From Dehalococcoidia bacterium (lineage in GTDB: Bacteria > Chloroflexota > Dehalococcoidia > GIF9 > AB-539-J10): a stretch of 43,918 bases of DNA. Positions 7,201 through 41,871 of the stretch are shown here, one piece after another. The stretch spans positions 1-43,918 of the forward strand of contig JAUWGZ010000001.1 in assembly GCA_030606165.1 (NCBI GenBank), in the 5' to 3' direction. Position 1 is the first letter of the stretch. Every line of letters begins with the position of its first letter. The position numbers were made by a program, and so were the translations under genes. Under the pieces are notes generated by a model. The model made no database searches, was not told the origin of the DNA, and was given only the letters and a program-made list of their open reading frames with translations.

Positions 7201-7341
7201 CCTGTAGCCGGTGTTATGCTGGAAGGTGGGGTTGGTATAGCAAAACTTTCCATCCTGTATGATGCAAAGTCCAACTGGCGATTTGTCGGCTAGAGTCTCG
7301 AATAAGTTTTCTGCCTCCGTTTCTTTGACTGCTAATCTCAT
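1255..7341 (-). CDS. Soluble multi-PAS/GAF sensor histidine kinase (2028 aa)
   Basis: About 13 PAS/PAC modules are separated by recurrent D(I/V)TERKxAEEAL linkers, plus one GAF-like module. C-terminal HisKA H-box (AHELNNPL) and HATPase_c (DDGPGI, GTGLGLSICHGIV). No hydrophobic N-terminal segment is visible. Confidence 0.93.
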   Translation of the reverse strand: MRLAVKETEAENLFETLADKSPVGLCIIQDGKFCYTNPTFQHNTGYREDELLDKDSLELIIPEDRVIARENAMKMLKGELTLPYQFRVTHKNGSIKWVMESVASVQYRGRPATLGNFIDITAHKQTDEALQAEKNKLQSLIDAMEYTLTIQDREYNIIYQNELSKIASGGDHLGEKCYRVYEGREEICDGCPVEKAFKDGKSHTAERRTAIAGEVAFWENTANPIRDAEGRVVSCLELTKNITERKKAEEELSKTQAQLSTAVQMAHLGPWEYDAINDLFIFSDAFYAIFHTTAEEVGGYTMSSAEYARRFVYPEDAPLVGVEVRKALQADDPSFSRQLDHRIIYADGEVGYISVRFFIVKDETGSTVRTYGVNQDITERKQAEEALRQSEEKYRALFDSSVVGTFIIDAETMKVMMTNRAAAKTFGFSSVEEGIGVNPLDFFQPEDRERVFKIIMKDMFEQDLRQTNEFRVMTKDGREIWISAVGTRIMHEGRLAGLISFTDITERKQAEEAWREAEEEKSALLEEAPIAVISADLKGKITYANKRFESESGYSREEIVGKNGLKLDWLPAGTIRYLTQRMAARLRGGPSKHWETQFKCKDGRWIWVAIEGKVLRRLRVPVGFQIIARDITERKLTEEKVQHFNLVLHAIRNINKLIARGSDRDSLLKGACDNFVKNRGYYSAWIALLDESGKLVTAAEAGLGKSFLQVMERLKRGELTPCGCKVLEKPGVLVMKDVSSECEGCPLAKEDTGRDAMSIRLEHGGKVYGLMTVSIPPGRAAEKEEHGLFEEIAGDIAFALHSIEQEQERKRVEKALRDSEEKLRKIFESATDGILVINLKGIITEVNQRTVEMHGFSSKDELRGKDALELLAPRDHKRVAANMRKAIKEGTIRGVEYTLLKADGTEFPGELSTNVLKDASGNPVGHISIARDITERKKQEEELQAERNKLQSIIDAMADGLTIQDGDYNIIYEGRLQRTIFGDHVGEKCYRVYEGRESICEGCPVEKAFKDGKSHTSERRTVTPSGEVVFWENTANPIRDARGEIVSCLEIARNITERKRAEEELRLLSSVTQQVSDAILVTNLGHNITYVNKAAEELFGCPAQEMLGKHVDAFNVEIPPESFKQEVEQTVSSGKTWVGTLVKKRKDGSTFLCECHISPLYDKQGKISSHIDVLCDITERKQAEEALQTERNKLQSLIDAMEDGISIQDTEYNIIFQNEPSRKSTGGDHVGEKCYRVYEGRESICEDCPVEKSFKDGKPHTSERQRVLPSGELSFWENTSNPIRDAKREVVACLEIGRNITERRKQEQALADELTRRRLLVDQSLDGIVVIDENDKVYEANQRFAEMLGYTPEEVHELHTWDWDKNFPPEKIHELGRKADEKGFLLETTHTRKDGSVIDVDISINASMFGGQKLIFCVCRDVTERKKAEQALADELTRRRLLVDQSLDGIVVLDVDAKVVEANQRFAEMLGYTLEEVRELHTWDWDKNFPPEQILEMGRGIDEKGRHLETKHTRKDGSVIDVDISISGIMYGGRKLIFCIQRDITERKKMEEAINLQRAYFQQLFDTSPDAIIMMDANDRAIQANRGFEVLFGYSNEEVKARSLIELIVPEVDVQEASDSLQRISGGEVVRKESVRRRKDGSLVDVSVLAYPIRFNDKLVGTYGVYSDITERKQAEEAIKHAAEEWRDTFDSISDAISIHDREYKILRANKAFADIFHMKPRQIIGRYCYELHSGEKPISGCPHKQTLATGKPAAAEFYESNLGKYLRESTSPIFDEKGEVVGTIHITRDITEQKQQNERLMMADRLASIGELAAGTAHELNNPLTSVLGFSQLVMEKDIPDDIREDLKLIHNEAQRAASVTKNLLTFARKQAPAKQLNQINNIIEDVLKLRAYEHKVNGIEVQRQLAPDLPEIKVDYSQMQQVFLNIIINAEYFMIEAHNRGTLTVTTKKRNGSVRISIADDGPGIPPETLSRIFNPFFTTKEAGKGTGLGLSICHGIVSEHGGQIYARSRPGKGATIVVELPTNNH
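2680..3411 (-). repeat. Tandem in-frame duplication of one 122-aa PAS module inside the kinase gene (2 x 366 nt)
   Basis: aa 1311-1432 and 1433-1554 both read ADELTRRRLLVDQSLDGIVV...HTWDWDKNFPPE...TRKDGSVIDVDIS...ERKK. The nucleotide units 2695-3060 and 3061-3426 align without gaps and look roughly four-fifths identical by eye. Confidence 0.85.
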
Positions 7342-25430: not shown

Positions 25431-25681
25431 CTTGGCTTGCTCTCTTTCCAGGAAATTACAAATTTAACCTGCTTGCCTTCTATTAAGTGTCTTTCGCTTT
25501 GGCTGCGGAGCTTTTTAAAGTCCATTGATTCCAGGAAGGCTTTGAGCAGCTCAATTCTACCCTCAAGTTTTTTATCCTCCTGCCCACCTTCCATATATTG
25601 GTTTACTGAATTCCAGAATTCCTCCTTGGCTGTAGTTTCTATACAGTGGGAGAGGCTGGGAAAAAGCTCAACGCCATCCAT
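25397..25681 (-). CDS. Hypothetical protein (94 aa)
   Basis: Charged, helical-looking composition, unlike the opposite-strand ORF. However, there is no clear SD and it overlaps ispF convergently by 34 nt. Confidence 0.35.
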   Translation of the reverse strand: MDGVELFPSLSHCIETTAKEEFWNSVNQYMEGGQEDKKLEGRIELLKAFLESMDFKKLRSQSERHLIEGKQVKFVISWKESKPSYEMVVIKATD

Positions 25682-25694
25682 AATTTAATTTGTA

Positions 25695-25761
25695 CCACCA
25701 AGTGGTGGCTATGGTCAAAATTTGACAAATTTGACAGGATCTATTATCATTATTATTGACA
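25695..25761 (+). promoter_or_regulatory. Control region upstream of the DUF134 operon: palindrome, tandem AATTTGACA repeat and candidate promoter
   Basis: Inverted repeat CCACCA-AG-TGGTGG (25695-25708). AATTTGACA x2 in tandem (25719-25736). A third TTGACA at 25756-25761. The best promoter fit is TTGACA (25722-27), 17 nt, TATCAT (25745-50). Confidence 0.35.
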
Positions 25762-25799: not shown

Positions 25800-26273
25800 A
25801 TGGCTAGGCCAGAAAAGTTGCGATGTGTTGCTCAGTTGCCGAATGTAGGCTTTTTTAGGCCGGTGGGGATTCCGGCAAATGCTTTACAGGGTATTCGCCT
25901 TTCACTTGGGGAACTTGAGTCTATCCGTCTTAAGGATTTGGAGGGGCTGGAACAGGAAGAATGTGCGCAGCAAATGCATATTTCCAGGCCGACTTTCCAT
26001 CGCATATTGGGATCGGCTCGGAAAAAGCTGGCTGATGCTCTGATTAATGGCAAGGCAATCCAAATCGAAGGGGGCAACTTTGAACTCCCCCAACGTCGCT
26101 TTAGATGTGGCAACGATGGACATGAGTGGAATGTGCCTTTTGAGGCAATGGCACAGAGGCTTCCTTTGTCTTGCCCGGTGTGCTTCAGTGGGAATATCCA
26201 GCCCATACCTTTGCCTCCATTTGCTACAGGCAGAGGATATGGCAGAGGATTTCGCGGTGGCAGATGCCGGTAA
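25800..26273 (+). CDS. DUF134 (UPF0251/COG1342)-type putative DNA-binding protein with C-terminal zinc ribbon and RG-rich tail
   Basis: P-x-V-x-FFRP-x-GIP, LSLGELESIRLKDLEGLEQEECAQQMHISRPTFHRIL is the family signature as I recall it. The C-terminal CGNDGH...CPVC is followed by GRGYGRGFRGGRCR. Confidence 0.8.
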   Translation: MARPEKLRCVAQLPNVGFFRPVGIPANALQGIRLSLGELESIRLKDLEGLEQEECAQQMHISRPTFHRILGSARKKLADALINGKAIQIEGGNFELPQRRFRCGNDGHEWNVPFEAMAQRLPLSCPVCFSGNIQPIPLPPFATGRGYGRGFRGGRCR

Positions 26274-26301
26274 TAAATAAAAAAGAAAGGGGGTGATGGA
26301 G

Positions 26302-26547
26302 ATGCCGTTTGGAGATGGAACTGGACCGATGGGCCTAGGTCCAATGACCGGAAGGGGAGCTGGCTTCTGTGCTGGTTTTGCCAGGCCAGGCTTCGCCAGC
26401 CCAATGCCTGGTTACTCTTACCGCTACGGTTACGCTGGTTTAGCACCGGTGTGGCCTAGGTGGGGCTGGGGGTTCGGTCGTGGCCTTGGTCGTGGCCTTG
26501 GGCGTGGCTGGTGGAGATGGGGACCTTATGGGTACCCTCGGTGGTAA
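26302..26547 (+). CDS. DUF5320-like protein: N-terminal MPxGDGTGP motif + Gly/Trp/Arg-rich tail
   Basis: MPFGDGTGPMGLGPMTGRGAGFCAG... then GWGFGRGLGRGLGRGWWRWGPYGYPRW. ATG 26302 is preferred over GTG 26293 because all paralogs start with MP and because of RBS spacing. Confidence 0.75.
   Translation: MPFGDGTGPMGLGPMTGRGAGFCAGFARPGFASPMPGYSYRYGYAGLAPVWPRWGWGFGRGLGRGLGRGWWRWGPYGYPRW
26476..26511 (+). repeat. 12-nt tandem repeat (GGTCGTGGCCTT x2 plus a degenerate third copy) encoding GRGL repeats
   Basis: The units at 26476-26487 and 26488-26499 are identical. 26500-26511 is diverged. Confidence 0.8.
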
Positions 26548-26627
26548 GTTTTAAATTTTCTTAAGGAGGTGGTAAAATGTGACCTTGGTATGGATTTTCA
26601 TGTCCTTGGGGATGGCCTGGGTATAGA

Positions 26628-26777
26628 ATGCCTTATGGGTATCCCTATGGCGGATATGGCTATCCTTGGGGAGCTATACCCAAGGAGGAAGAGATAGTCA
26701 TGCTTGAAGAGCAGAGAAGATATCTGACTAGCGAATTGGATGGAGTGACAAAGAGGCTTGAAGAACTTCGCAAATAG
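26628..26777 (+). CDS. Small Tyr/Gly/Pro-rich + coiled-coil protein (DUF5320 C-terminal-like); start unresolved, see finding on ATG-TGA at 26577
   Basis: MPYGYPYGGYGYPWGAIPKEEEIVMLEEQRRYLTSELDGVTKRLEELRK. The C-terminal KRLEELRK is identical to that of the next gene. The strong RBS (AAGGAGGTGG) serves ATG 26577 rather than ATG 26628. Confidence 0.5.
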   Translation: MPYGYPYGGYGYPWGAIPKEEEIVMLEEQRRYLTSELDGVTKRLEELRK

Positions 26778-26791
26778 AAAGGAGGTGAGAA

Positions 26792-27187
26792 ATGCCTAAT
26801 GGATATGGTAGAGGATTTGGCAGAGGAGGAGGAGGATGGGGATTCGGTTTTAGAGGAAGCTCTCCTCCCTGGCCTTATGTTGGCAGAGGAAGGGGAGGAT
26901 TGCCTAGGGGTGGCTATTTCCTCAGTGGAGCTGCGGGGATGCCTGTCCCGCCGGGCTATCCCTCTTATGGTAGCCCTGGGGTTATGCCTTATGGAGGAAC
27001 AGCTTATCCGGGAGCTATGCCATATAGCGGTTATGCTGGGGCAGCTATGGGAGCAATGCCAGGAGCAGACCCTTATGCTCCGCAGATGACCCGGGAGCAG
27101 GAACTGGATTTCTTAAGAAACCAGGCTGGAGTGTTGGAGAGTGAGTTAGATGTAATTAGGAAGAGACTGGAGGAGCTTCGCAAGTAA
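26792..27187 (+). CDS. Gly/Pro/Tyr-rich low-complexity protein with DUF5320-type C-terminal coiled coil (131 aa)
   Basis: MPNGYGRGFGRGGGGWGFGF... then PYAPQMTREQELDFLRNQAGVLESELDVIRKRLEELRK. RBS AAAGGAGGTG. Confidence 0.75.
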   Translation: MPNGYGRGFGRGGGGWGFGFRGSSPPWPYVGRGRGGLPRGGYFLSGAAGMPVPPGYPSYGSPGVMPYGGTAYPGAMPYSGYAGAAMGAMPGADPYAPQMTREQELDFLRNQAGVLESELDVIRKRLEELRK

Positions 27188-27236
27188 AGAAGTGAGGTTT
27201 GTGTACATAATATTTAAATTGAAAAGGAGGTGAATT

Positions 27237-27572
27237 ATGCCAGGATTTGATGGAACGGGACCACGTGGAATGGGCCCAATGACGGGAGGAGGAAGAGGTT
27301 TTTGCAGCCCTTGGAGTATAGGCAGGGGATATGGTTTTGGGCGAGGATATGGCTTTGGAGGGGGATACGGGTTTGGAATGGGCATGCCTTATGCAGGGCC
27401 TGCACCATATAGTTATGCTGGGGCACCTACGGGGGCAGTGCCAGGAGCGTACCCCTATGCACCGCAGATGACCCGGGAGCAGGAGCTGAATTTCCTAAAA
27501 AGCCAGGCTGAAGCAATAAAGGGACAATCGGAGCAAATTGATGCTAGAATAAAAGAACTGGAGACAGAGTAA
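27237..27572 (+). CDS. DUF5320-like protein with all three modules (N motif, GY-rich linker, coiled coil)
   Basis: MPGFDGTGPRGMGPMTGGGRGFC..GRGYGFGRGYGFGGGYGFG..PYAPQMTREQELNFLKSQAEAIKGQSEQIDARIKELE. RBS AAAGGAGGTG. Confidence 0.8.
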   Translation: MPGFDGTGPRGMGPMTGGGRGFCSPWSIGRGYGFGRGYGFGGGYGFGMGMPYAGPAPYSYAGAPTGAVPGAYPYAPQMTREQELNFLKSQAEAIKGQSEQIDARIKELETE

Positions 27573-27590
27573 ACTAGAAAGAGGTGCATC

Positions 27591-28187
27591 ATGAAAATTG
27601 CAGTATCAGCAACAGGGCTTGACTTAGATGCTGAGGTGAACCCTCGCTTTGGAAGGTGCCAATACTTCGTCATTGTTGACCCCCAGAGCATGGAGTTTGA
27701 GGCCTTGGATAACTCTAATGCTATGGCCGCTGGTGGGGCAGGCATCAGCACAGCCCAGATGATTGCCAGCAAAGGGGCGGAGGTCGTGCTAACGGGTAAT
27801 TGTGGACCTAATGCCTATCAGACACTATCCGCCGCAGGTCTTCAGGTAATCACCGGCGTTGCCGGGAGAATAAGAGACGCTGTTGAAGCTTACAAGGCAG
27901 GGAAGTTTCAATCAACCGCTCAACCTAGTGTAGCAGCCCATTATGGAATGGGAGCTACTCCCGGCATGGGAATGGGTGGAGGTATGGGCATGGGTCGTGG
28001 CATGGGCAGAGGAATGGGCATGGGTAGAGGCATGGGAATGGGGGAAACAATGCCCATGGCAGAGCCGCCACCTCAAGCCATGAGCTCGGAGCAGGAAGTA
28101 GAGATGCTTAAAAACCAGGCTCAAGCGATGAGCCAGCAGCTAAATGAGATTCAACGTCGCATCGAAGAGCTAGAGAAAGGGAAGTAA
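27591..28187 (+). CDS. NifX/NifB-C-terminal/ORP-like (PF02579) domain fused to a Met/Gly/Arg-rich tail and coiled coil
   Basis: MKIAVSATG..VNPRFGRCQYFVIVD...GAGISTAQMIASKGAEVVLTGNCGPNAYQTLSAAGLQV is a typical Nitro_FeMo-Co fold signature. It is followed by GMGMGGGMGMGRGMGRGMGMGRGMGMG and SSEQEVEMLKNQAQAMSQQLNEIQRRIEELEK. Confidence 0.85.
   Translation: MKIAVSATGLDLDAEVNPRFGRCQYFVIVDPQSMEFEALDNSNAMAAGGAGISTAQMIASKGAEVVLTGNCGPNAYQTLSAAGLQVITGVAGRIRDAVEAYKAGKFQSTAQPSVAAHYGMGATPGMGMGGGMGMGRGMGRGMGMGRGMGMGETMPMAEPPPQAMSSEQEVEMLKNQAQAMSQQLNEIQRRIEELEKGK
27964..28043 (+). repeat. Degenerate short tandem repeats (GGCATGGG-type) encoding (G/R)MG repeats
   Basis: The run ggcatgggaatgggtggaggtatgggcatgggtcgtggcatgggcagaggaatgggcatgggtagaggcatgggaatggg read directly from the sequence. 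Confidence 0.75.
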
Positions 28188-28190
28188 GCT

Positions 28191-28415
28191 ATGCCCATCT
28201 ATGAGTATCAGTGCACTCACTGTGGGGGGAGGTTCGAAGTTCGCCAAGCTATTGGCGAGGATGGTTCCAATTTAAGTTGTCCTGAGTGTCATGCTGGAAA
28301 ACCGAGAAGGCTCCTTTCCTCATTCTTTAGCTCAAGGTCAAGCACAACTGGTCCGTCGGAAGCAAGTTGTCCTACCTGTAGCTCTGGAGTTTGCGGACTG
28401 CCACCGATGGAGTAA
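28191..28415 (+). CDS. FmdB-family zinc-ribbon protein, copy 1
   Basis: MPIYEYQCTHCGGRFEV....LSCPECHAGKPRRLLS is the CxxC_CxxC_SSSS signature. Its tail carries CPTCSSGVC. Confidence 0.85.
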   Translation: MPIYEYQCTHCGGRFEVRQAIGEDGSNLSCPECHAGKPRRLLSSFFSSRSSTTGPSEASCPTCSSGVCGLPPME

Positions 28416-28444
28416 AACAAAACCAATTCTTAGCGAGGTGAGTT

Positions 28445-28666
28445 ATGCCAAGAGGAGATGGTACAGGCCCTTATGGGCAAGGTTCAGGAACTGGCAGGGG
28501 GTTAGGCGCCAGGGGTATGGGGAGGATGGGAGGAAACCGCCCTGGCGCGGGTCCCAGTGGGAATTGCGTGTGTCCTAGTTGTGGAACAAAGATTCCTCAC
28601 CAGGCAAGCGTTCCCTGCTATAACCTGAACTGCCCCAAGTGTGGGGCAAAGATGATTCGGGAATAG
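28445..28666 (+). CDS. DUF5320 N-terminal motif fused to a C-terminal Cys-rich zinc ribbon (73 aa)
   Basis: MPRGDGTGPYGQGSGTGRGLGARGMGRMGG... then CVCPSCGTKIPHQASVPCYNLNCPKCGAKM. Confidence 0.75.
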   Translation: MPRGDGTGPYGQGSGTGRGLGARGMGRMGGNRPGAGPSGNCVCPSCGTKIPHQASVPCYNLNCPKCGAKMIRE

Positions 28667-28667
28667 A

Positions 28668-29528
28668 ATGATAGTCTCTGTTGCCAGTGGTAAAGGTGGC
28701 ACAGGAAAGACGCTGGTGGCTACCAGCTTAGCTCTTTCCCTGAGCGATAACTATAAGGTTCAACTGTTGGACTGTGATGTAGAGGAGCCAAATGCTAATA
28801 TTCTTCTGCATCTAGCTGTGAACCAAAGCCAACCCGTGTATATTCCTATCCCCAAGGTGGACGAAACGAAATGTACTTATTGTGGCAAATGCGCTGAAGT
28901 CTGCGCCTATAACGGTATTGCGGTGCTTAAGGAAAAAGTGCTTGTTTTCCCTGAACTGTGTCATGGTTGTGGAGCATGTTCTTACCTATGCCCTGAGTCT
29001 ACTATTACTGAGGAAGGAAGAGAGATGGGGGTAGTTGAAAGAGGCGATTCAGGGAATTTGGAATTAATTCAAGGGAAGATTAACGTTGGCGAAGCGATGG
29101 CTCCACCCGTAATCAGGGAGGTAAAGAAGTATATTGACCCTGCAAATATAGTAATCATCGATGTTCCTCCGGGAACTTCTTGTCCTGTAGTAGAGACGGT
29201 AAAGGGGAGCGATTTTTGTCTCCTCGTGACCGAGCCTACTCCTTTTGGGCTAAATGACCTTTCACTGGCAGTGGAGGTAGTGAGAAAACTGGGTATGCCC
29301 TGTGGGGTGGTAATTAATCGTGTTGGAATAGGAGGCGAGGAAGTTGAGCGGTATTGCCATCGGGAAGAAATAGCAATTTTAATGAGAATCCCCCTGGATA
29401 GAAAGATCGCCATGTTTTATTCGAAGGGAATTCCCTTGGTAGAAGGGATGCCTCGGTGGCGTGAGGATTTTCTCAAACTTTTTCAGGACATCAAAGATAT
29501 AATTGCTGCTAGCTGGGTAGTAAAATGA
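28668..29528 (+). CDS. MinD/ParA-superfamily P-loop ATPase with inserted 2x[4Fe-4S] ferredoxin module (COG1149-type), copy 1
   Basis: Deviant Walker A SGKGGTGKT. Insert CTYCGKCAEVC...CHGCGACSYLCP. Walker B IIDVPPG. Confidence 0.88.
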   Translation: MIVSVASGKGGTGKTLVATSLALSLSDNYKVQLLDCDVEEPNANILLHLAVNQSQPVYIPIPKVDETKCTYCGKCAEVCAYNGIAVLKEKVLVFPELCHGCGACSYLCPESTITEEGREMGVVERGDSGNLELIQGKINVGEAMAPPVIREVKKYIDPANIVIIDVPPGTSCPVVETVKGSDFCLLVTEPTPFGLNDLSLAVEVVRKLGMPCGVVINRVGIGGEEVERYCHREEIAILMRIPLDRKIAMFYSKGIPLVEGMPRWREDFLKLFQDIKDIIAASWVVK

Positions 29529-29725: not shown

Positions 29726-30586
29726 ATGAAAGAAGTCGTGGTTCTTAGTGGCAAGGGAGGAACAGGGAAGACATCTATTGTGGCATCCTTTGCGTCCCTA
29801 GCCCAAAGTAAGGTATTAGTTGACTGTGATGTAGATGCCGCCGACCTTCATCTCCTCCTTAAACCAAAGGTTAAGGAGGAAAAGGAATTCTGGAGCGGGC
29901 GAGTCGCTTTCATAGACGAAGATAAGTGCACAGAATGTGGCTTATGTCAGGAATTGTGCCGCTTTGGAGCCATTAAGGATTTTAAAGTTGACCCTCTCTC
30001 CTGTGAAGGCTGCGGCTTCTGCTACCAGGTTTGCCCTGTTGATGCCATCGCTATGAAGGACAGCATGAGTGGGCATTCGTTTATCTCGGAAACCAAATAC
30101 GGTTATTTATGCCACGCCAGGTTGGGTATTGCCCAGGAAAACTCAGGAAAGTTGGTGGCGCTAGTGCGGCAGAACGCCAAGCTCATCGCTGAGAGGGAAA
30201 ATTTAGACTATATCATCACCGATGGTCCTCCGGGCATAGGCTGCCCGGTTATCTCCTCGCTATCGGGTGCCAGTCTGGCATTGTTGGTGACCGAGCCTAC
30301 GCTATCAGGGATTCATGACCTTGAGCGGGTCATTGGCGTTTGCCGCCACTTCGGCGTTCCTGTTTTAGTTTGCGTAAATAAATATGACCTCAATGAAGAG
30401 AATACCTGTCGAATTGAAAGCTATTGTGGCAACGAGGGAATAGAGGTGAGTGCAAGGATTCCTTTTGATAATGTAATAACTGAAGCGATTGTTCAGGGAC
30501 TGCCGGTAGTAGAATACTCCAACAACAAGGTAACGCAGCAGATAAAAGAGCTATGGCAAATTATTCCAGCCAAACTAGAAAAATAG
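29726..30586 (+). CDS. MinD/ParA-superfamily P-loop ATPase with inserted 2x[4Fe-4S] ferredoxin module (COG1149-type), copy 2
   Basis: SGKGGTGKT, CTECGLCQELC...CEGCGFCYQVCP, ITDGPPG. Same 286-aa length as copy 1. Confidence 0.88.
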   Translation: MKEVVVLSGKGGTGKTSIVASFASLAQSKVLVDCDVDAADLHLLLKPKVKEEKEFWSGRVAFIDEDKCTECGLCQELCRFGAIKDFKVDPLSCEGCGFCYQVCPVDAIAMKDSMSGHSFISETKYGYLCHARLGIAQENSGKLVALVRQNAKLIAERENLDYIITDGPPGIGCPVISSLSGASLALLVTEPTLSGIHDLERVIGVCRHFGVPVLVCVNKYDLNEENTCRIESYCGNEGIEVSARIPFDNVITEAIVQGLPVVEYSNNKVTQQIKELWQIIPAKLEK

Positions 30587-30595
30587 GAGGTAGAG

Positions 30596-30841
30596 ATGCC
30601 AATTTATGAATACAGATGCTTGGAATGCGGGAGGAATTCAGAGATATTTCTCCGTAGCCTTAACAGCCAAAATGTCCAATGTTCAGTATGCGGCAGCCGC
30701 AAGCTAGAGAGGCTTCTCTCCGCCTCGTATACTCTGAAGACTGATGCCTCTACACCTGGCACGACTTGTTGTGGCAGGACAGAACGCTGTGAGACACCTT
30801 CTTGCTCCTTGGACGACACTTGCAGGAGGGATAATAAATGA
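30596..30841 (+). CDS. FmdB-family zinc-ribbon protein, copy 2
   Basis: MPIYEYRCLECGRNSEIF....VQCSVCGSRKLERLLS, with a Cys-rich tail (TTCCGRTERCETPSCS). Confidence 0.85.
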   Translation: MPIYEYRCLECGRNSEIFLRSLNSQNVQCSVCGSRKLERLLSASYTLKTDASTPGTTCCGRTERCETPSCSLDDTCRRDNK

Positions 30842-31176
30842 GATTCGCAGTACCTATAGTAGAAGGTAAGGTGGCTGCTCACTTTGGCCATTGCAGCCAT
30901 TTCGCCTTATTTGATGTTGATGAGGCGGCTATGGCAGTTGTGAGCAAGGAGACCATACCGTCGCCAGGACATCAACCTGGGCTTCTTCCTGCATGGCTGG
31001 CTGAAGAGGGAGTTTCCGTTGTTATAGCTAGTGGCATGGGTTCCAGGGCCCAAGCGATTTTCAGCGAGAATCACATTGAAGTCGTTGTTGGCGTGCTTGG
31101 TGATGAACCTGAGAAGGCTGTTTTGGATTATATAAAAGGCGAGTTGGCAAGCGGCGGTAATATATGTGACCATTAA
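30838..31176 (+). CDS. NifX/NifB-C-terminal/ORP-like (PF02579) single-domain protein
   Basis: MRFAVPIVEGKVAAHFGHCSHFALFDV...VIASGMGSRAQAIFSENHIEVV. ATGA overlap with the upstream gene. Confidence 0.85.
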   Translation: MRFAVPIVEGKVAAHFGHCSHFALFDVDEAAMAVVSKETIPSPGHQPGLLPAWLAEEGVSVVIASGMGSRAQAIFSENHIEVVVGVLGDEPEKAVLDYIKGELASGGNICDH

Positions 31177-31883: not shown

Positions 31884-31916
31884 GTGGGAGACCTTTTGCC
31901 AGCAGGAGGTGATTTG

Positions 31917-32927
31917 GTGAATCAAATCGATGCAAAATTAGAAGAAGCACTGAATAAAGTGCTTGTCCCCGGAACAATGCGTAGCTTGGTACAGATGAAC
32001 TTGGTTCGAAGCGCGGAAGTTAAGGAAGGCAAGGCGAAAATAAATTTGGCTTCGACTGCTATCCCTGACCAATATCATAGTGGGCTGAAGGACAAAGCAG
32101 CGGCAGCGGTTAGCGAGGTTTCCGGGGTGGAGGAAGTAACTGTTGACCTTGTCGAAGCCAAGCCCAAAGAGCTTAATCAGATTGAGAAAATAATAGCGGT
32201 CATGAGTGGCAAAGGAGGAGTGGGCAAATCTCTGGTAACTGGTTTGTTGGCTACTGCTTTTGCTCGGGAAGGCAAGGCTGTTGGCGTGCTCGACGCTGAT
32301 ATCACTGGCCCCAGTATTCCCAAGATGTTTGGTTTAGGTGCTCGCCCCAGCGGTAGCGAGACAGGTATTTTGCCCGTATTATCGAGGTCTGGAATTGAAA
32401 TTATGTCCATGAATCTGCTTTTGCCTAGTGAAGATGAAGCGGTTATCTGGAGAGGCCCCCTCATGTCTAAAGCTATCACGCAATTCTGGGAGGAAGTTCT
32501 TTGGGGCAAGCTGGATTATCTGGTAATAGACCTGCCCCCGGGCACTGGAGATGCCCCATTGACGGTGCTTCAGGCAATACCCATCTCAGGGGTAATCGAT
32601 GTTTTTACTCCTCAGGAGTTGACTGAGATGATAGTCAAGAAGGCAGTGAGGATGGCACAAAAGATGAATGTTCGAGTTTTGGGAGTAGTGGAGAACATGA
32701 GCTATCTCGTATTGCCTGACACAGGTAAGAAGATGGAAATTTTTGGCAGGAGCAAAGGGGAAGAAATGGCTAAGGCCTCCGGAGCTCCTCTTTTGGGGCA
32801 ATTGCCTATTGATCCCGAGCTAGCCAGGTTGTGCGACCAGGGAGAAATTGAGAGGTATAGCTCAGATGCTGTGTCTGAACTTTTTACCAATGTGGTCGCA
32901 GTTCTAAATGGGAAGAATGAAGGGTAG
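31917..32927 (+). CDS. Mrp/NBP35/ApbC-family P-loop ATPase with N-terminal DUF59-like domain, lacking the CxxC cluster-binding motif
   Basis: MSGKGGVGKS, WGKLDYLVIDLPPGTGD, VVENMSY. GTG 31917 lies 5 nt after AGGAGGTG, although the ORF is open from 31884. There is only one Cys in the whole protein. Confidence 0.85.
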   Translation: MNQIDAKLEEALNKVLVPGTMRSLVQMNLVRSAEVKEGKAKINLASTAIPDQYHSGLKDKAAAAVSEVSGVEEVTVDLVEAKPKELNQIEKIIAVMSGKGGVGKSLVTGLLATAFAREGKAVGVLDADITGPSIPKMFGLGARPSGSETGILPVLSRSGIEIMSMNLLLPSEDEAVIWRGPLMSKAITQFWEEVLWGKLDYLVIDLPPGTGDAPLTVLQAIPISGVIDVFTPQELTEMIVKKAVRMAQKMNVRVLGVVENMSYLVLPDTGKKMEIFGRSKGEEMAKASGAPLLGQLPIDPELARLCDQGEIERYSSDAVSELFTNVVAVLNGKNEG

Positions 32928-32988
32928 CTATGCGCAGTCAGGCAAGTTGGTTCAGCCCGTGAAATCTTTTTCTAGAGAAGTAAAGAAA

Positions 32989-33450
32989 ATGGCACAAGAA
33001 TTTGATGACTCGTTCAAAGAAGTGGAGCAATCCGTTATGGAGGATATGGAAAGGGTCTACTCGGAAAAAACGATTGACCATTTTCTGAACCCCAGAAATC
33101 TGGGTGAAATTTCTGCCCCCGATGGATTTGGCAGGGTCACTGGTCCTTGTGGGGATACCATGGAAATATATCTCAGGGTAAATAGTGACAAGATTGTCAA
33201 TACTACCTTCTGGACCGATGGCTGTGGTACTAGCATTGCCTCGGGCAGTATGGTTACCGAGATGGCTAAGGGAAGGAACGTCAGCGAAGCTCAGAGGATT
33301 AGCCAGCATGATGTCTTAGCTGCTCTAGGTGGGCTGCCTGAGGAAAGCGAGCATTGTGCTCTTTTGGCGGCAAATACGCTGAAGGAAGCGATTAGAGACT
33401 ACCTAGGTATAAAAAGAGAGCCTTGGAAAAGAGCTTACCGCAGATATTGA
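32989..33450 (+). CDS. IscU/NifU-N-terminal-type Fe-S cluster scaffold protein
   Basis: DHFLNPRNLG, GPCGDTM, TDGCGTSIASGS and EHCALLAANTLKEAI carry the three conserved scaffold cysteines. The start is uncertain: the ORF is open from 32908, with other in-frame ATGs at 32917 and 33037. Confidence 0.8.
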   Translation: MAQEFDDSFKEVEQSVMEDMERVYSEKTIDHFLNPRNLGEISAPDGFGRVTGPCGDTMEIYLRVNSDKIVNTTFWTDGCGTSIASGSMVTEMAKGRNVSEAQRISQHDVLAALGGLPEESEHCALLAANTLKEAIRDYLGIKREPWKRAYRRY

Positions 33451-33464
33451 GGAGTGAATATAAA

Positions 33465-34106
33465 GTGCCTCCTGTAGTTTCTATTGTGGGTAAATCAAAA
33501 TCTGGTAAAACAACTGTCATTGAAAGGCTGGTTCAGGAACTGAAATCCAGAGGTTACCGGGTGGCTACAATCAAACATGCTCCCCTAGGCGCTAGCTTTG
33601 ATGAACCGGGTAAGGATAGCTGGTATCACATTGAGGCAGGAAGCGAGGCCACGGTAGTTAGCTCACCGGATAATCTCGTGCTGGTAAAGCCTGTTTCCCA
33701 GGATTCTCCCCTTGAAGAGATAGTACGTCTCTTAGGTGAGGATTACGATATCATCCTTACAGAAGGTTTCAAACAAGAGGGCACTCCAAAGATAGAGGCA
33801 CATCGCAGAGATACTGGCCCACCGTTGAAAGATATCAAAAAGCGTATAGCCATAGTCACCAATGAACCGTTGGAAACCAAGGCTAGGCAGTTTTCATTTG
33901 AAGATAATAAGAGCCTGGCTGACCTGTTGGAGAGAGGCTTCATCAAGCCACAGAAGGAGCGAATCTCTCTTTACGTAAATAATACTCCTATACCTTTGAC
34001 CAGTTTTCCCAAGCAGATTATCACGGATATGCTTGTGGCTATGGCCTCGTGCCTGAAGGGAGTAAAGGAAATCAGTAGTCTCCAGATTTTCCTGAGGAAG
34101 GAATAA
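33465..34106 (+). CDS. mobB: Molybdopterin-guanine dinucleotide biosynthesis adapter MobB-like GTPase with C-terminal extension
   Basis: [32 protein letters not shown] 33465 is preceded by GAGGAG. About 50 extra C-terminal residues compared with a typical MobB. Confidence 0.8.
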
Positions 34107-34114
34107 GCACGGAA

Positions 34115-34528
34115 GTGAAGGACTATTATCAGATTCTTGGTGTAAGCACAGACGCCGGTTCTGAAGATACCAAGAAAGCCTTCCGCCGACTGGCTCTACG
34201 TTATCATCCTGACCGCAACCCTGGAAATACCAAAGAAGCTGAGGCCAGGTTCAAGGAGATAAATGAGGCTTATGAAGTGCTTGGCAATGAACAAAAGAGA
34301 CGCGAGTATGATTATTTGACTGGACATAGGCAAAGCCAGACTGAAAGGGTGAGAGTGAATACGGTTTTCAGGGGCAGCCTGGACGATTTTACTTATCACA
34401 GTCTTGAAGAGCTTTTAAGGATTCTGGCGGCATTGAATTTCGACGGTACTGAATTATTCATGGAGCAGCGTAAAGGTTGTCGTAAATTCCGTCGGGGGCA
34501 TCAATGTCGGCGTGGATATTGGCGTTGA
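34115..34528 (+). CDS. Stand-alone J-domain protein (137 aa) with basic Cys-containing tail
   Basis: DYYQILGV...[16 protein letters not shown]...[21 protein letters not shown] contains the HPD motif. No Gly/Phe or zinc-finger DnaJ regions are present. Confidence 0.85.
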
Positions 34529-34581
34529 ATCTTGTAGTGCATTTATGGACTTTAATTTAAGTCTAAAGGTTAGGTTCTGAG

Positions 34582-35382
34582 ATGGCAATTATTTATGGCC
34601 CTGTTGCTTCATGGCGCTTGGGCAGCTCGCTGGGTATAGACCTTCTAAATACGAGAAGGAAGGTCTGCTCCTTTAATTGCGTCTATTGCCAGTTGGGTGA
34701 GACCAGCCAATTTGTCGTCGAGCCAAAGGAATTCATCAGCCTGGAACAACTAACCAGTGAAATCGAGTTGCTCAGGCCGGTAGAGGCTGATTACGCCACT
34801 TTTTCTGGCATGGGTGAGCCTACACTGGCCAGTAATCTTGGCGAGGCGATTGAGCTTGCAAGGTCAATTTTGGATTTACCCATAGCTGTGCTCACCAATT
34901 CTTCGCTCATGTTCCGCCAAGATGTAAGGCAGCGGCTTGCCCGGGCCAACGTGGTAGTGGCTAAGCTAGATGTGCCCAATGCGAATTTGTTTGCCAAGGT
35001 TAATAAACCGGCTTCAGGCTTGCGTTTTGACCTCATAGTGGATGGCATGAAGCGGTTCAGAGACACATATCGGGGCAAATTAGCCCTGCAGGTAATGTTT
35101 ATTGCCGCTAACAAGGATTATGCCTCGGAGATGGCAGCGCTGGCTCGTCAGATTTCGCCTGACGAGGTGCAAATAAATACACCTTTACGCCCCTGTGCTG
35201 TGAGACCACTACCGCCTAAAAGCATAGCTGAGGTACAGAGAGAATTTACCAATTTCGAAAATGTTGTCACTGTATACGAGGCACGAAAGTACAAAGTTCT
35301 GCCGCTTGATTTGGCGGAGACATTGCGACGTCGCCCTGAACTTGATGACAGCGTTGGTTCTTTCAAGTTGCATGGAAGCTAA
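34582..35382 (+). CDS. Radical SAM protein (266 aa)
   Basis: CSFNCVYCQLG is a CxxxCxxC triad, preceded by YGPVASWRLGSSLGIDL and followed by GMGEPTL. Confidence 0.8.
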   Translation: MAIIYGPVASWRLGSSLGIDLLNTRRKVCSFNCVYCQLGETSQFVVEPKEFISLEQLTSEIELLRPVEADYATFSGMGEPTLASNLGEAIELARSILDLPIAVLTNSSLMFRQDVRQRLARANVVVAKLDVPNANLFAKVNKPASGLRFDLIVDGMKRFRDTYRGKLALQVMFIAANKDYASEMAALARQISPDEVQINTPLRPCAVRPLPPKSIAEVQREFTNFENVVTVYEARKYKVLPLDLAETLRRRPELDDSVGSFKLHGS

Positions 35383-38325: not shown

Positions 38326-38500
38326 AGTTCCTCCTCTATTTTGTTTCTTCTAATCGACTTCTCGTCTGCCTCCGTGTAATTCAATCAATAGTTGAGATAG
38401 CCTTCTCATTAATTCTTTCATCTCTCAGGCTGCCCGCGGTAGGATGAACCTTGATAAGCCCATCCTCTATTTAATCCTCTTCCTCGGCATAGACCTCTCC

Positions 38501-38641
38501 CTACACCCATTTCTCTACCCATCTCTCTGTTTTTTCGTTGCCACAATTGGGGCACTTCACCTGTTCATCCATCTCTGAGAAACGACGAAAAACTTCGAAC
38601 ACCTTTCCACATTCTCTGCATTTATAATCATAGGCAGGCAT
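38501..38641 (-). CDS. FmdB-family zinc-ribbon protein, copy 3 (46 aa), absent from the ORF track
   Basis: My translation is MPAYDYKCRECGKVFEVFRRFSEMDEQVKCPNCGNEKTERWVEKWV*. RBS GGAGAAAC. It overlaps the end of the upstream methyltransferase gene by 14 nt. Confidence 0.75.
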   Translation of the reverse strand: MPAYDYKCRECGKVFEVFRRFSEMDEQVKCPNCGNEKTERWVEKWV

Positions 38642-39350
38642 AGTTTCTCCTTTTATTCAGGTTGTGAGCATAAACATAGTCGCACTTTTCAAAATTATTC
38701 CCCACCTCTAGATCATCCAAAGAAACGCTTTGCACCTGAAATTCCAATCCTTGAAGATATTGGACAAGTTCCTGAACCGATTGACCTAGTTGTTTCAAGA
38801 AATCGTGGTGGATCTCACAAAATATCTTGACTTTATTTTTTCGCAAGGTTTCCTTAGCTCCCTTAAGGACCAATAGCTCGCTCCCTTCACAGTCCATATT
38901 AATCAAATCTATTCTTTCTATCTTCTCCCCAATTAAGAATCTGTCTATAGTAGTAGTGGACACTTCAAACCTTTTGGCTCCTTCTTCAAAAACGATCCCA
39001 CTGGAGAGCCCCTTTTGGTAAAAAGGGGCTCTCCCCACCTGATCAGTCACTGCTAGTTCATAAGCCTCAACATTTTCTAGTCTGTTAGAGGATATATTCT
39101 TGTTCAGGGTGTCGAAATACTGAGGAAGCGGCTCAAAGGAGTAAAGCTTGCCTCTCCTTCCTATTTTCTTTGCTACGGCCACAGTAGTGATACCTATATT
39201 GGCGCCAATATTGATGACGTTCATCCCTTCTTCGACGATTGACCCCAAGAATTTTATCTCTCCTCGTTCATGAGGATTATCTTTTAGAAAATTCTTGAGG
39301 CCAGGTGAATCATAAAGAAAAAGCTCTATTTCCATTCCTAAATACCTCAA
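38628..39350 (-). CDS. FkbM-family methyltransferase
   Basis: NVINIGANIGITTVAVAKKIG..GKLYSFEP and INMDCEGSELLVLKG are typical of the FkbM family. Confidence 0.8.
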   Translation of the reverse strand: MRYLGMEIELFLYDSPGLKNFLKDNPHERGEIKFLGSIVEEGMNVINIGANIGITTVAVAKKIGRRGKLYSFEPLPQYFDTLNKNISSNRLENVEAYELAVTDQVGRAPFYQKGLSSGIVFEEGAKRFEVSTTTIDRFLIGEKIERIDLINMDCEGSELLVLKGAKETLRKNKVKIFCEIHHDFLKQLGQSVQELVQYLQGLEFQVQSVSLDDLEVGNNFEKCDYVYAHNLNKRRNYACL

Positions 39351-39709
39351 GTCCGCTTGTTGCTTCTTACAACAGAAACACCTCCCGGCGTTAGATCAAC
39401 CTTGTTACCTTCTATTTCTATGAAATATGAACTCTTAAGGAAGTTAAGGTGGAATCTTAGTGCAGGTCCTGTTATTCCTACTCTTTCAGAAATTTCATTT
39501 ATTGCCAAAGCTCTTTCCTTTAAAACATTTAGAATGCGTCTACGAACGGGATTTTTTATGGCTTCGAGAGAACATGCACCTCCCGCAGAGCCTTTCTCTT
39601 CCACTAACTTGCTAACTAATTCTTGCATCCACCTCATTGCTTCCTCATCAGTCATTTCTCTAGGGTCTCGTCGAGTAGAATCCATTTCAACCTCCCGCTC
39701 AATAAGCAT
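39347..39709 (-). CDS. ArsR-type winged-helix transcriptional regulator
   Basis: IKNPVRRRILNVLKERALAINEISERVGITGPALRFHLNFLKSSYFI. It overlaps the downstream gene by 4 nt. Confidence 0.7.
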   Translation of the reverse strand: MLIEREVEMDSTRRDPREMTDEEAMRWMQELVSKLVEEKGSAGGACSLEAIKNPVRRRILNVLKERALAINEISERVGITGPALRFHLNFLKSSYFIEIEGNKVDLTPGGVSVVRSNKRT

Positions 39710-39726
39710 TGTCTAGACACATCGTT

Positions 39727-40491
39727 CTATCCATTTCTTTTTGTTGCTTTGACTTCTGCCTTCTTTTTAGATTCCAGCATATCGGCAATTTCCTTGATAC
39801 CCTCAACATCCATGTTAAATTCGTTGCCAGCTAAAGCAGAGATAAATATCTCTTTATTTTCCGGAATAATAGCTATCACCTTCTCTCTGTCTATTGAATT
39901 CAAGAGGAACTCTTTCGTTTCTTGGTCAGCAATCCGATTCAATATGTAATAGACAGGCTTATCAACTTGCCGGCCTAGTTCAGATATCTTCTTCGCTAGA
40001 AGGATCGATTCCTGAGAAGGATCGATAATAACAAAGAGTATATCCACGCCTGTCTCTATCCCTCTTCCGAAGTGCTCTATTCCAGCGTCGGTATCTGCAA
40101 TCAAGAATTCTTCGTCCCCTAAATCGACGATTTCCAAAAACTTTGAGGAAAGAGCATTGATTGGACAGGCGCATCCTTCACCGAATTCGTATATTTTGCC
40201 CATTGATAAGAGTTGAATATTTCCTTTTCTGGTTAAATAATCTCCGGGCAAGTCACCTAATCTCCATTTATTTTTCATCTCCTTAGTTTTTTCAAATAGA
40301 AGTTTTTTGCCCCCAAAGTAGTTCATAAAATCTTCAGGTTTTTCCATTCCTAAACGGCTATGAAGACCAATGTTCGACTCATCGCTGTCAATCACCAATA
40401 TCTTGTTTTTTCTTAGCGCCATCTCTTTGGCTAAAAGGGCCACAACCGTGCTTTTTCCACAGCCCCCTTTACCACAGACTAATATTTTCAT
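39727..40491 (-). CDS. CooC-type (MinD/ParA class) metallocentre-maturation ATPase
   Basis: Deviant Walker A CGKGGCGKST. CxC metal-binding motif GEGCACPINA. Walker B ADTDAGIEHF. RBS GGAGGAAAG. Confidence 0.8.
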   Translation of the reverse strand: MKILVCGKGGCGKSTVVALLAKEMALRKNKILVIDSDESNIGLHSRLGMEKPEDFMNYFGGKKLLFEKTKEMKNKWRLGDLPGDYLTRKGNIQLLSMGKIYEFGEGCACPINALSSKFLEIVDLGDEEFLIADTDAGIEHFGRGIETGVDILFVIIDPSQESILLAKKISELGRQVDKPVYYILNRIADQETKEFLLNSIDREKVIAIIPENKEIFISALAGNEFNMDVEGIKEIADMLESKKKAEVKATKRNG

Positions 40492-40566
40492 TCACTTTCC
40501 TCCGTTCATCAATGTCCTTCCTCGAACCTCCGGCAGTTAGAAAATCTGCTGCACGTTCCTCTCTTT

Positions 40567-40956
40567 TCATCTTCCACGCCGACCTCCGCCAAAACCCCGG
40601 CCCATGCCACGACTGGGACCCATACCTCGGCCTCCACCCATGCGCCGACCTCTACCTAGACCTTGGCCCATACCTCTTCCCATGCCTCTGCCTCCGCTTA
40701 ATCCAGGCTGGTGAAGTCCAGGGCTGGGGCCAAATTGCGGAATCGCTTCTTCAGGGACTCTGGCTCCCATAATTTCACACACTTTGGCAGCCACCTCCGG
40801 TCCGCCACTAACACATCCATAACATGGTGCCTTTCCTTCAGCTACTGCCCGGGCAAACTCTCCACAGGTCTTATATCCACATCGCTGATCATCCAATTTA
40901 GGCAAGACCTCATAGATTTTCCTTATCTTTTCTTTGATATCCTTTTTATCTAGCAC
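40567..40956 (-). CDS. Putative Fe-S domain (PF04060, RnfB/CdhE-N-terminal type) fused to a Gly/Arg/Met-rich tail
   Basis: RCGYKTCGEFARAVAEGKAPCYGCVSGG, followed by GGRGMGRGMGQGLGRGRRMGGGRGMGPSRGMGRGFGGGRRGR. GTG start with RBS AAAGGAG. Confidence 0.75.
   Translation of the reverse strand: MLDKKDIKEKIRKIYEVLPKLDDQRCGYKTCGEFARAVAEGKAPCYGCVSGGPEVAAKVCEIMGARVPEEAIPQFGPSPGLHQPGLSGGRGMGRGMGQGLGRGRRMGGGRGMGPSRGMGRGFGGGRRGR
40570..40704 (-). repeat. Low-complexity coding repeats (RGMG-type) in the tail of the Fe-S domain protein
   Basis: Same repeat class as 27964-28043, read from the translation and the nucleotide pattern. Confidence 0.7.
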
Positions 40957-41334: not shown

Positions 41335-41871
41335 TTAATGTTGTAATTCGATCAATAACTGGGATAACCTGTCATTTGCCTTTTCCATCTCTTGCGCTGC
41401 TTGTAATACACCATTGTAAGTGGGGTCATCTCCTACACTCTTGGCTTTCTCCGCCCATTTCCTGAATTTCCCACTATCCAGTTTGTTATGCTCCACCCAG
41501 GACGTTAGAAGCACATTAAGCCTGCCCATTTCATCACTTGGAAACCTTACGATAATTTCCTCAACCTTTGACCGGATCACCTGCTCAGGAACTGCACCGA
41601 GGATTTCGTCAACTTGCTGGCCATCAACGAAATACTTCTGCATGGGTATGCTCATAATCTGGTATTTCATTGCCGCCTGTTGATTTTCATCCACATTAAT
41701 CATGCAGAATTTAAATTTACCTTCATATTCCTCTGAGAGCTTCTCGTATATAGGTATAACCATCTTGCATGGGCCACACCAGGGAGCCCAGAAATCGACC
41801 TCTGTAGGAAGGTCTGAATTCAGGACCTCCTCCTCAAAATTTCGATCCGTGATGTCTATTATTTTACTCAT
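41335..41871 (-). CDS. Thioredoxin with about 70-aa helical C-terminal extension
   Basis: FWAPWCGPCK active site. 178 aa versus about 105-110 for a plain thioredoxin. RBS AGGAGG. Confidence 0.88.
   Translation of the reverse strand: MSKIIDITDRNFEEEVLNSDLPTEVDFWAPWCGPCKMVIPIYEKLSEEYEGKFKFCMINVDENQQAAMKYQIMSIPMQKYFVDGQQVDEILGAVPEQVIRSKVEEIIVRFPSDEMGRLNVLLTSWVEHNKLDSGKFRKWAEKAKSVGDDPTYNGVLQAAQEMEKANDRLSQLLIELQH

Follow-up and report, generated by a model that had tools for sequence, protein, structure and literature searches.

Which task falls to a row of small genes that share the same short peptide modules and stand ahead of genes for iron–sulfur proteins? The question is raised by a 43,918-nucleotide stretch of DNA (the window) from a Dehalococcoidia bacterium (NCBI GenBank assembly GCA_030606165.1, contig JAUWGZ010000001.1, positions 1 to 43,918 of the forward strand). 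Genes A to E and G, at 26302–28666 on the plus strand, form an array with members of DUF5320 (PF17253), a family to which its Pfam entry assigns no function and for which none is given in the literature searched that mentions DUF5320. Our analysis showed that each array protein combines up to four short modules and that the array encodes accessory proteins of an operon for iron–sulfur handling of the ORP/IssA type.

Array proteins are built from four short modules

A first-pass annotation, made from the sequence alone, had described the array as six consecutive genes assembled from three modules. The shared-module build of A–E and G was borne out, with all open reading frames (ORFs) as described. 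The genes are not consecutive, since gene F (28191–28415, plus strand), an FmdB-type zinc ribbon (Zn_ribbon_8, 62 bits; TIGR02605, 66 bits) without any module, interrupts the row between E and G, and the inventory of three had overlooked one motif in gene C. The first of the four modules is an invariant N-terminal Gly/Pro peptide that carries one Cys (the N-motif). The second is a tail without acids or Lys, composed of GRGΦG-type repeats, where Φ stands for Tyr, Phe, Trp, Leu or Met, and of runs of Pro/Tyr/Ala. The third, the overlooked one, is SPPWPYVGxGRGGLPRC, with the longer form GFGFRGSSPPWPYVGxGRGGLPR[C]GYF; it is conserved in 35 loci and the Cys after LPR in 26 of the 35, the window having Gly at this position. 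The fourth is an amphipathic heptad helix of about 30 residues.

These modules occur in different combinations, and all the genes concerned lie on the plus strand. DUF5320 scores are whole-protein scores, to be read against the Pfam gathering threshold of 27 bits. Gene A (26302–26547; 51.4 bits over model positions 1–56, the N half) joins the N-motif MPFGDGTGPMGLGPMTGRGAGFC to a Trp/Arg/Gly tail that ends in ...YGYPRW and is not followed by a helix; the tail contains 28% Phe, Tyr and Trp (FYW), 26% Gly and 14% Arg, no Asp, Glu or Lys, and has an isoelectric point (pI) of 11.3. Gene B (26577/26628–26777; 22.8 bits, below threshold) encodes a Trp/Tyr/Gly/Pro tail and a short coiled-coil helix. 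Gene C (26792–27187; 22.2 bits, below threshold) starts with MPNGYGRGFGRGG and continues with the third module as GFGFRGSSPPWPYVGRGRGGLPRGGYF, a Pro/Tyr/Ala/Gly linker and a coiled-coil helix. Gene D (27237–27572; 78.7 bits over model positions 1–99) is the archetypal full-length DUF5320 protein, with N-motif, GYGFGRG/PY linker and coiled-coil helix. In gene E (27591–28187) a NifX/ORP-like domain (Nitro_FeMo-Co, PF02579, 85.5 bits) precedes a GMG/RGMG tail and a coiled-coil helix, the latter part matching the C part of DUF5320 at 44.3 bits. Gene G (28445–28666; 19.1 bits, below threshold) encodes a six-Cys ribbon, CxCPxCG...CPKCG, behind a short N-motif, MPRGDGTGP, and a Gly/Arg tail.

The DUF5320 assignment proposed in the first-pass annotation thus holds for D as a full-length member and for A and E over part of the model, whereas B, C and G share its modules and yet are not members by the curated cut-off. 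Searches found 2058 relatives of D, which point to Dehalococcoidia/Chloroflexota as the source, and 1664 of C, most of the latter without Pfam annotation; no NCBIfam family was found for A, C or G and no PDB relative for G. The closest PDB matches of E are ORP (2WFB, 76.9 bits) and MTH1175 (1EO1, 73.6 bits), and its domain groups with ORP, MTH1175 and IssA.

The proposed combination of disordered linkers with coiled coils was supported by AlphaFold2 models of D and E built with family alignments, in which a disordered tail is followed by one confident C-terminal helix. In D, residues 1–75, the N-motif included, have a predicted local distance difference test (pLDDT) score below 50 and the helix at 80–110 a score of about 86; in E, the NifX domain (about 90) and the helix at 166–196 (about 90) flank a tail at 119–162 below 50. 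The helices of B, C, D and E have Leu, Ile, Val, Met or Phe at 6–7 of 9–11 heptad a/d positions, which gives a length sufficient for about four heptads. The coiled-coil consensus given earlier fits C and E fully and D with two deviations, but only the second half of B. Residues invariant in D are M1, P2, G3, G8, P9, G13, T16, G17, G18, G21, C23 and L87. The N-motif does not fold alone in these models, and in this it resembles a short linear motif that depends on a partner or ligand.

The array is conserved and its tails are under purifying selection

A D-type gene was present in 410 species genomes in a genome scan, and the best 80 loci were analysed (loci here and below are numbered with a prefix L). 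Gene order was read from hidden Markov models (HMMs) of the N-motif and the helix and from phmmer searches with the window's neighbouring proteins. About 80 species of Dehalococcoidia and Bipolaricaulota keep the array order, which runs DUF134, (N-only), (short helix-only), (C type), D, NifX with tail and helix, then zinc ribbon, G, two MinD-like ferredoxin ATPases, zinc ribbon, NifX and Mrp. Architectures were counted in the 54 loci complete from DUF134 to the first ATPase. The N-motif with helix (D type) is present in 53 of the 54, G in 47, NifX with helix in 40 (a further 13 have a NifX protein whose helix is absent or under the HMM threshold), helix-only proteins in 36, N-only proteins in 17 and ferredoxin fusions in 7. 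All but one of these loci contain three to six module genes. The linker of D varies from 5 to 92 residues among orthologues, and the helix stays in frame in every case.

Frame preservation and purifying selection in related genomes had been named in the first-pass annotation as the test of whether the low-complexity regions are coding. The frames are kept. Codon comparisons of the window with L002, L012 and L013 gave ratios of nonsynonymous to synonymous substitution rates (dN/dS) of 0–0.15 for the N-motifs, 0.06–0.10 for the NifX domain and 0.10–0.34 for the tails (0.18–0.34 for that of gene A), apart from a single 0.72 from a segment with very few changes. With frames kept and dN/dS well below 1, the array ORFs are therefore, on this comparative evidence, real coding regions with tails under purifying selection. 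In most of 59 loci the stop codon of G lies –4 to +9 nucleotides (nt) from the start of the first MinD-like ATPase gene, a spacing by which the two genes appear to be translationally coupled.

Two segments showed a low synonymous rate (dS). In the C helix (27073–27187) dS was about 0.09 in three comparisons, compared with 0.25–0.47 in the C tail, and in the N-motif of D (27237–27305) it was 0.06 (L002) and 0.13 (L013) but 0.37 (L012). These values hint at gene conversion or at constraint at the nucleotide level. Public gene calls of the A and C orthologues at 5361–5850 of L005 (Chloroflexi bacterium RBG_13_51_36) are in wrong frames, with products like MDMVEDSGGEGGG; the orthologues of A and C at 7030–7948 of L010 are intact in the correct frames.

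Modules are exchanged between paralogues

The suggestion that modules are shuffled between neighbouring genes was upheld by a chimeric helix in C and by fusions in relatives. A 23-mer occurs in exactly two copies, at 27080–27102 in C and 27462–27484 in D, with a chance expectation of 0. It lies inside a 102-nt stretch of C (27030–27131, plus strand) that is 86% identical to D 27412–27513 and constitutes the D-like half of the C helix. Over the first 48 aligned nucleotides this helix is 88% identical to D, whereas its last 59 nucleotides are 64% identical to B and 41% to D. The B-like helix end of C (…SELDVIxKRLEELRK) is limited to the window's close clade, and other species have a D-like end. 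The D-like 5' half, the B-like 3' half and the clade-limited distribution of the latter show that the chimeric helix arose by recombination between paralogues. The 23-mer had been taken as a sign of recent duplication or gene conversion; recent duplication accounts for only part of the picture, as the paralogues themselves are old and widely conserved, with gene conversion or recombination acting locally.

Joined genes point the same way. Two [4Fe-4S] ferredoxin motifs in one domain are combined with an A-type N-motif and tail in L026 and L034, with a tail only in L031, L035, L074 and L085, and with a C-type protein in L057; in L029, L053 and L085 the N-motif is joined to the C motif and helix. 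A DUF5320 profile search that covered 1.84 billion representatives returned 3483 clusters at 50% identity, some with a tandem pair of N-motifs. Ahead of the second N-motif many longer ORFs read 'KEV..MP', which is the translated Shine–Dalgarno sequence AAGGAGGTG; examples are L026 3886–4368, L034 4312–4806 and the representatives P0364, P0382 and P0396, among others. A plain domain-fusion reading of these extended ORFs was thereby qualified, since 'KEV..MP' inside them marks two neighbouring genes joined in frame. The internal start may still be used for separate translation. Public gene calls may over-extend some of the joined ORFs.

Gene B is being lost in the window's clade

The YG tail and coiled coil ascribed to gene B are present, but its ORF is not open from ATG 26577, where it had been placed as one of two starts. 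Codon 2 (26580–26582) reads TGA, and in the same frame ATG next occurs at 26628. The Shine–Dalgarno sequence AAGGAGGTG lies 5 nt upstream of ATG 26577. Recoding of this TGA as selenocysteine or Trp was considered and rejected, as TGA is an ordinary stop in the window, closing 10 of 32 long ORFs, and codon 2 is TGG in the L002, L012 and L013 orthologues. Intact copies of B are present in L002, L013, L022, L028, L029 and L043; the gene is frameshifted in L012 (7388–7565), interrupted by several stops in L014 (2643–2876) and deleted in L010 (7540–7571). The nonsense codon, frameshift, stops and deletion across the clade therefore mark a paralogue in course of loss, and the window's B would be either a fresh pseudogene or made solely from ATG 26628. 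The clade that is losing B is the one whose gene C gained the B-like helix end.

The array belongs to an ORP-type operon

Eight closely packed genes, each preceded by a Shine–Dalgarno sequence, occupy 25800–28666 of the plus strand. The operon likely starts at a promoter-like site at 25722–25750 (plus strand; TTGACA-17-TATCAT, 11 of 12 positions), upstream of the DUF134 gene; a terminator-like hairpin lies at 25492–25511, 3' of ispF, and no strong terminator was found within the array. The DUF134 gene (25800–26273, plus strand; Pfam DUF134, 86 bits), which opens the cluster in most of the 80 species loci, encodes a helix-turn-helix regulator with a Cys-rich C-terminal region and, as first described, the Gly/Arg tail GRGYGRGFRGGRCR (pI 11.8, net charge +5).

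The genes that follow the array, all on the plus strand, support the link to ORP-type machinery that the first-pass annotation had suspected. A MinD/ParA-like P-loop ATPase with an inserted 2x[4Fe-4S] ferredoxin domain (28668–29528; CbiA, ParA, Fer4) is followed by a paralogue with the same kind of insert (29726–30586; CbiA/ParA and Fer4), both resembling Orp3/Orp4. Then come a second FmdB zinc ribbon (30596–30841; Zn_ribbon_8, 47.6 bits), a tail-less NifX/ORP-like protein (30838–31176; 116 bits to the NifX-domain region of NCBIfam MrpORP), an Mrp/NBP35-type Fe–S carrier ATPase (31884–32927; ParA/NUBPL, 304 bits, and FeS_assembly_P) and a NifU_N scaffold (32908–33450; NifU_N, 120 bits). Together with DUF134 these genes form the order kept in the 54 complete loci.

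DUF5320 opens ORP-type operons in other lineages too, with FUR, DUF134 or an OrpR-like PAS–sigma54 activator as neighbour, followed by NifX and MinD-Fer4. L099 has DUF134, FUR, DUF5320, two NifX genes, MinD-Fer4, NifU and MinD-Fer4. In L100 (2815–5960) and L103 (5542–11730) an OrpR-like PAS–sigma54 activator is followed by a DUF5320 protein with two tandem N-motifs and then NifX, to which L103 adds two MinD-Fer4 genes.

The operon can be compared with the ORP system of Desulfovibrio vulgaris Hildenborough, whose loci are arranged as orp5-4-3 / orpR / orp7-8-9 (PMC6345978, PMC8359166). MrpORP matures the Fe–S proteins of the ORP complex and shows polar localisation and foci in D. vulgaris, and the paper describing it cites IssA (PMC6345978). 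Both systems have two paralogous MinD-like ATPases with 2x[4Fe-4S] motifs (Orp3/Orp4), a NifX/ORP-like protein (Orp8; E and 30838–31176 in the window), an Mrp/NBP35 carrier and small Cys-rich proteins. The DUF5320 proteins of L100 and L103 occupy the orp7 position, which makes Orp7 (DVU2107), assigned to no family in the papers searched, a candidate DUF5320 protein. In the window, unlike D. vulgaris, the regulator is DUF134 and not a PAS–sigma54 OrpR, the Mrp protein lacks a fused NifX domain, scores against NCBIfam MrpORP stay far under its cut-off of 450, and DUF5320 has multiplied into five or six modular paralogues and is also joined to an ORP-like domain. A reading of the array proteins as precursors of ribosomally synthesized and post-translationally modified peptides was rejected; both termini are conserved and the middle is variable, and there is no maturation protease, transporter or adjacent modifying enzyme.

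Tail chemistry resembles that of IssA

IssA of Pyrococcus furiosus (PF2025) consists of a NifX-type domain and a disordered tail of 70 residues, in which Gly, Arg, aromatic residues and Pro abound and a single Cys occurs; this tail has been suggested to wind around anionic thioferrate in nanoparticles of iron sulfide (PMC5524996). For comparison we used nine Thermococcales-type homologues, found with a degenerate pattern from the published cloning primer, which stand in for PF2025. The window tails contain 24–44% Gly, no Lys and about no Asp or Glu, and those of A–D 16–38% FYW, against a background of 7% Gly and 7% FYW. In a six-frame translation of the 43.9-kb window, Gly/Arg stretches free of acids and Lys are confined to these tail proteins and one small ORF. 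The Thermococcales IssA tails (…PAYPAYGYGPGWGRGWGRGGGWGRGRGWGRGGGRGWGAQLGYCPWTGQPSRRTWLARFFGWW) have 20–27% Gly, 10–11% Arg, 20–22% FYW and 13–18% Pro.

The NifX-type domain of IssA (IPR003731/PF02579) is found in the array in E only, which is 33% identical to Thermococcales IssA (E = 1e-11). Next to IssA lies a further NifX protein that ends in …GRGMGRGMGRGMG…GRGGW and has GRGMG repeats like those of the E tail; E is 34% identical to this neighbour. DUF134 genes are also close to Thermococcales IssA and start with MPRGMGQGWGRGRGRRR. The tails of A, C and DUF134 fit the description of a cationic Gly/Arg/aromatic tail, and GWGRG-type repeats and a C-terminal Trp are found in the Thermococcales homologues. 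Among the array relatives, 18 of 25 A-type proteins and 3 of 4 ferredoxin–tail proteins end in Trp, compared with 0 of 206 helix-bearing proteins; IssA (GWW) and its NifX neighbour (GGW) do so as well. The ferredoxin–tail proteins carry GRGNPYxFCRFxPWLPRRWW, which resembles LGYCPWTGxPxRRxW of IssA in a Cys–PW–RR–W pattern. Most array tails differ from that of IssA in forming free-standing small proteins or in following ferredoxin or Cys-ribbon domains, and the N-motif and coiled-coil helix of the array are both lacking in IssA. The Gly/Arg tail of DUF134 proteins is N-terminal in L093 (5635–6123) and L094 (752–1108; MPRGMGQGWGRGRGRRRK…) and C-terminal in Dehalococcoidia.

The tail type recurs once more in the window, as had been noticed earlier, on a protein unlinked to the array. 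The minus-strand gene 40567–40956 encodes a 'putative Fe-S cluster' domain (PF04060) to which an RGMG tail of 54 residues is attached (44% Gly, 20% Arg, net charge +11) and, in a locus at 39347–40956 of the minus strand, adjoins a MinD/CbiA-like ATPase (39727–40491) and an ArsR-type regulator. A thioredoxin gene (41335–41871) lies upstream of it.

A proposed iron–sulfide matrix and its alternatives

We propose, with a probability of roughly 45%, that the array proteins form a coiled-coil-assembled, IssA-like cationic and aromatic matrix, and that this matrix retains anionic iron–sulfide species on behalf of the ORP-type machinery. Helix pairing among B, C, D and E would ring the NifX-like carrier domain of E with several tails and N-motifs. 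The IssA-like tails would hold anionic iron–sulfide, as thioferrate-like chains or clusters, through Arg charge, aromatic stacking and the single Cys, and tails without a following helix would end in a C-terminal Trp as IssA does. The iron–sulfide would then be passed to, or taken from, the NifX, MinD-like [4Fe-4S], Mrp and NifU proteins encoded downstream. New module combinations would arise through duplication, in-frame joining of neighbouring genes and recombination between paralogues. A more ambitious version, in which DUF5320 paralogues, NifX–tail–helix and ferredoxin–tail proteins build a combinatorial matrix that templates a thioferrate-like iron–sulfide storage body inside the cell while the two MinD-like ATPases load, unload or position it, seems to us improbable; if true, this body would be a bacterial counterpart of the IssA nanoparticle made from separate, exchangeable tail subunits.

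Several observations weigh against an iron–sulfide matrix of the IssA kind. The IssA and array tails show no detectable homology, and their likeness lies in composition and short motifs. Nitro_FeMo-Co was the sole match in a Pfam scan of two Thermococcales IssA proteins, with no match to DUF5320, and BLASTP of the IssA tail against one ferredoxin–tail protein gave nothing significant. The Cys–PW–RR–W pattern, moreover, was drawn up with both sets already in view. The tails of D (net charge +2), B (+1) and E (+1) are weakly cationic, and that of E is a Met-rich Gly/Met/Arg sequence with 2% aromatic residues. With a pI of 5.3 and 3% Gly in its last 40 residues, the latter low because the helix occupies them, E falls outside the ranges given by Vaccaro et al. 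(pI at least 9, few Cys and at least 20% Gly in the last 40 residues for IssA; pI at least 8 and at least 10% Gly for IssX). The precedent is itself debated, as thioferrate-like iron forms in ΔIssA cells too (PMC8219758), and the purified D. vulgaris ORP complex is reported to comprise Orp3, 4, 5, 8 and 9 without Orp7 (PMC6345978).

Other explanations of the array share part of this evidence, and the readings considered here, the matrix included, could hold side by side. The disorder of the tails, their richness in Arg, Tyr, Phe, Trp and Gly, the multivalency that the common helices could provide and the polar foci of MrpORP in D. vulgaris (PMC6345978) would all suit a ligand-independent scaffold, in which Arg/Tyr/Gly tails phase-separate and coiled coils add valency to concentrate the ORP-type machinery. 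We regard such a condensate as possible but unlikely, because the same tail type sits specifically on Fe–S or metal-cluster domains (NifX, ferredoxin, PF04060, Cys ribbon) and on IssA, whose partner is an inorganic polyanion, and because one conserved Cys per tail module suggests contact with a ligand. We take IssA as the better and more specific precedent. The N-motif, nearly invariant yet unstructured in the AlphaFold2 models as a docking peptide would be, raises another prospect: it could dock on and regulate the two MinD/ParA-like ATPases in the manner of McdB, MinE or the ParB N-peptide, with the coiled coil dimerising and the tails as spacers. The array recalls the McdB-type partners known from carboxysome positioning. 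These small proteins combine a disordered region with a coiled coil and a Trp at one terminus, and their genes adjoin that of a ParA/MinD-family ATPase. G bears an N-motif and appears coupled to the first ATPase in most loci, and the tail protein at 40567 adjoins another MinD-like ATPase. Such an adaptor role is nevertheless doubtful. B, C and E have no N-motif, the purifying selection on the tails and their specific chemistry exceed what a spacer needs, and no single array protein unites all three McdB features, which are spread over paralogues (the helix in B–E, the terminal Trp in A). No sequence relation to McdB is known, and the ATPases here have Fe–S domains and are encoded in an Fe–S operon.

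RG-rich tails bind nucleic acids in many systems, and the DUF134 helix-turn-helix protein itself is RG-tailed, at its C-terminus here and at its N-terminus in Thermococcales. Tails that modulate DNA or RNA binding together with this regulator are, however, very improbable as a general explanation: most are attached to Fe–S domains or belong to proteins without a DNA-binding domain, B, D and E are barely charged, and aromatic/Pro-rich and Met-rich stretches are atypical of nucleic-acid binders. Least credible is that the low-complexity ORFs are spurious or decaying frames in G-rich DNA. Alternative frames of the same DNA do yield long ORFs, public gene calls in L005 are wrongly framed, and gene B is indeed decaying in the clade. 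Yet a Shine–Dalgarno sequence precedes every gene, frames, termini and gene order are kept in about 80 species, dN/dS is well below 1 and the relatives number in the thousands. For A, C, D, E and G the comparative data refute an artefact, which leaves it as a possibility for B in this genome only.

Additional features of the window

Downstream of NifU_N, at 33423–35382 of the plus strand, lie genes for MobB, which belongs to molybdopterin-guanine dinucleotide synthesis, for a DnaJ-domain protein and for a radical SAM protein. L007 and L008 likewise have MobB followed by radical SAM, and L002 ends within MobB. On the minus strand, a 46-residue FmdB-type zinc-ribbon ORF (38501–38641) overlaps in another frame a 45-residue RG-tail ORF (38418–38555; …GVGRGLCRGRGLNRGW…), and a single frameshift at the run GAAAAAAC would fuse them into one protein of zinc ribbon and RG tail. 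A sequencing error, a pseudogene or programmed slippage could account for the split at 38418–38641. At the left end of the window one ORF of 2028 residues spans 6 kb (1255–7341, minus strand).

Significance

DUF5320 is a large family, and its place in ORP operons together with IssA-like tails gives it a testable function. Whether these proteins hold iron sulfide and whether they assemble through their helices are questions that can now be put to experiment. The array is also an unusually clear bacterial case of evolution by exchange of very short modules, with a chimeric helix, in-frame fusions that contain a translated ribosome-binding site and a paralogue caught in decay. We infer an ORP/IssA-type system in which the function of the tail may have been split among exchangeable small proteins. 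If the reading as a storage matrix is true, storage of iron sulfide would be shared by hyperthermophilic archaea and widespread bacteria of the subsurface.

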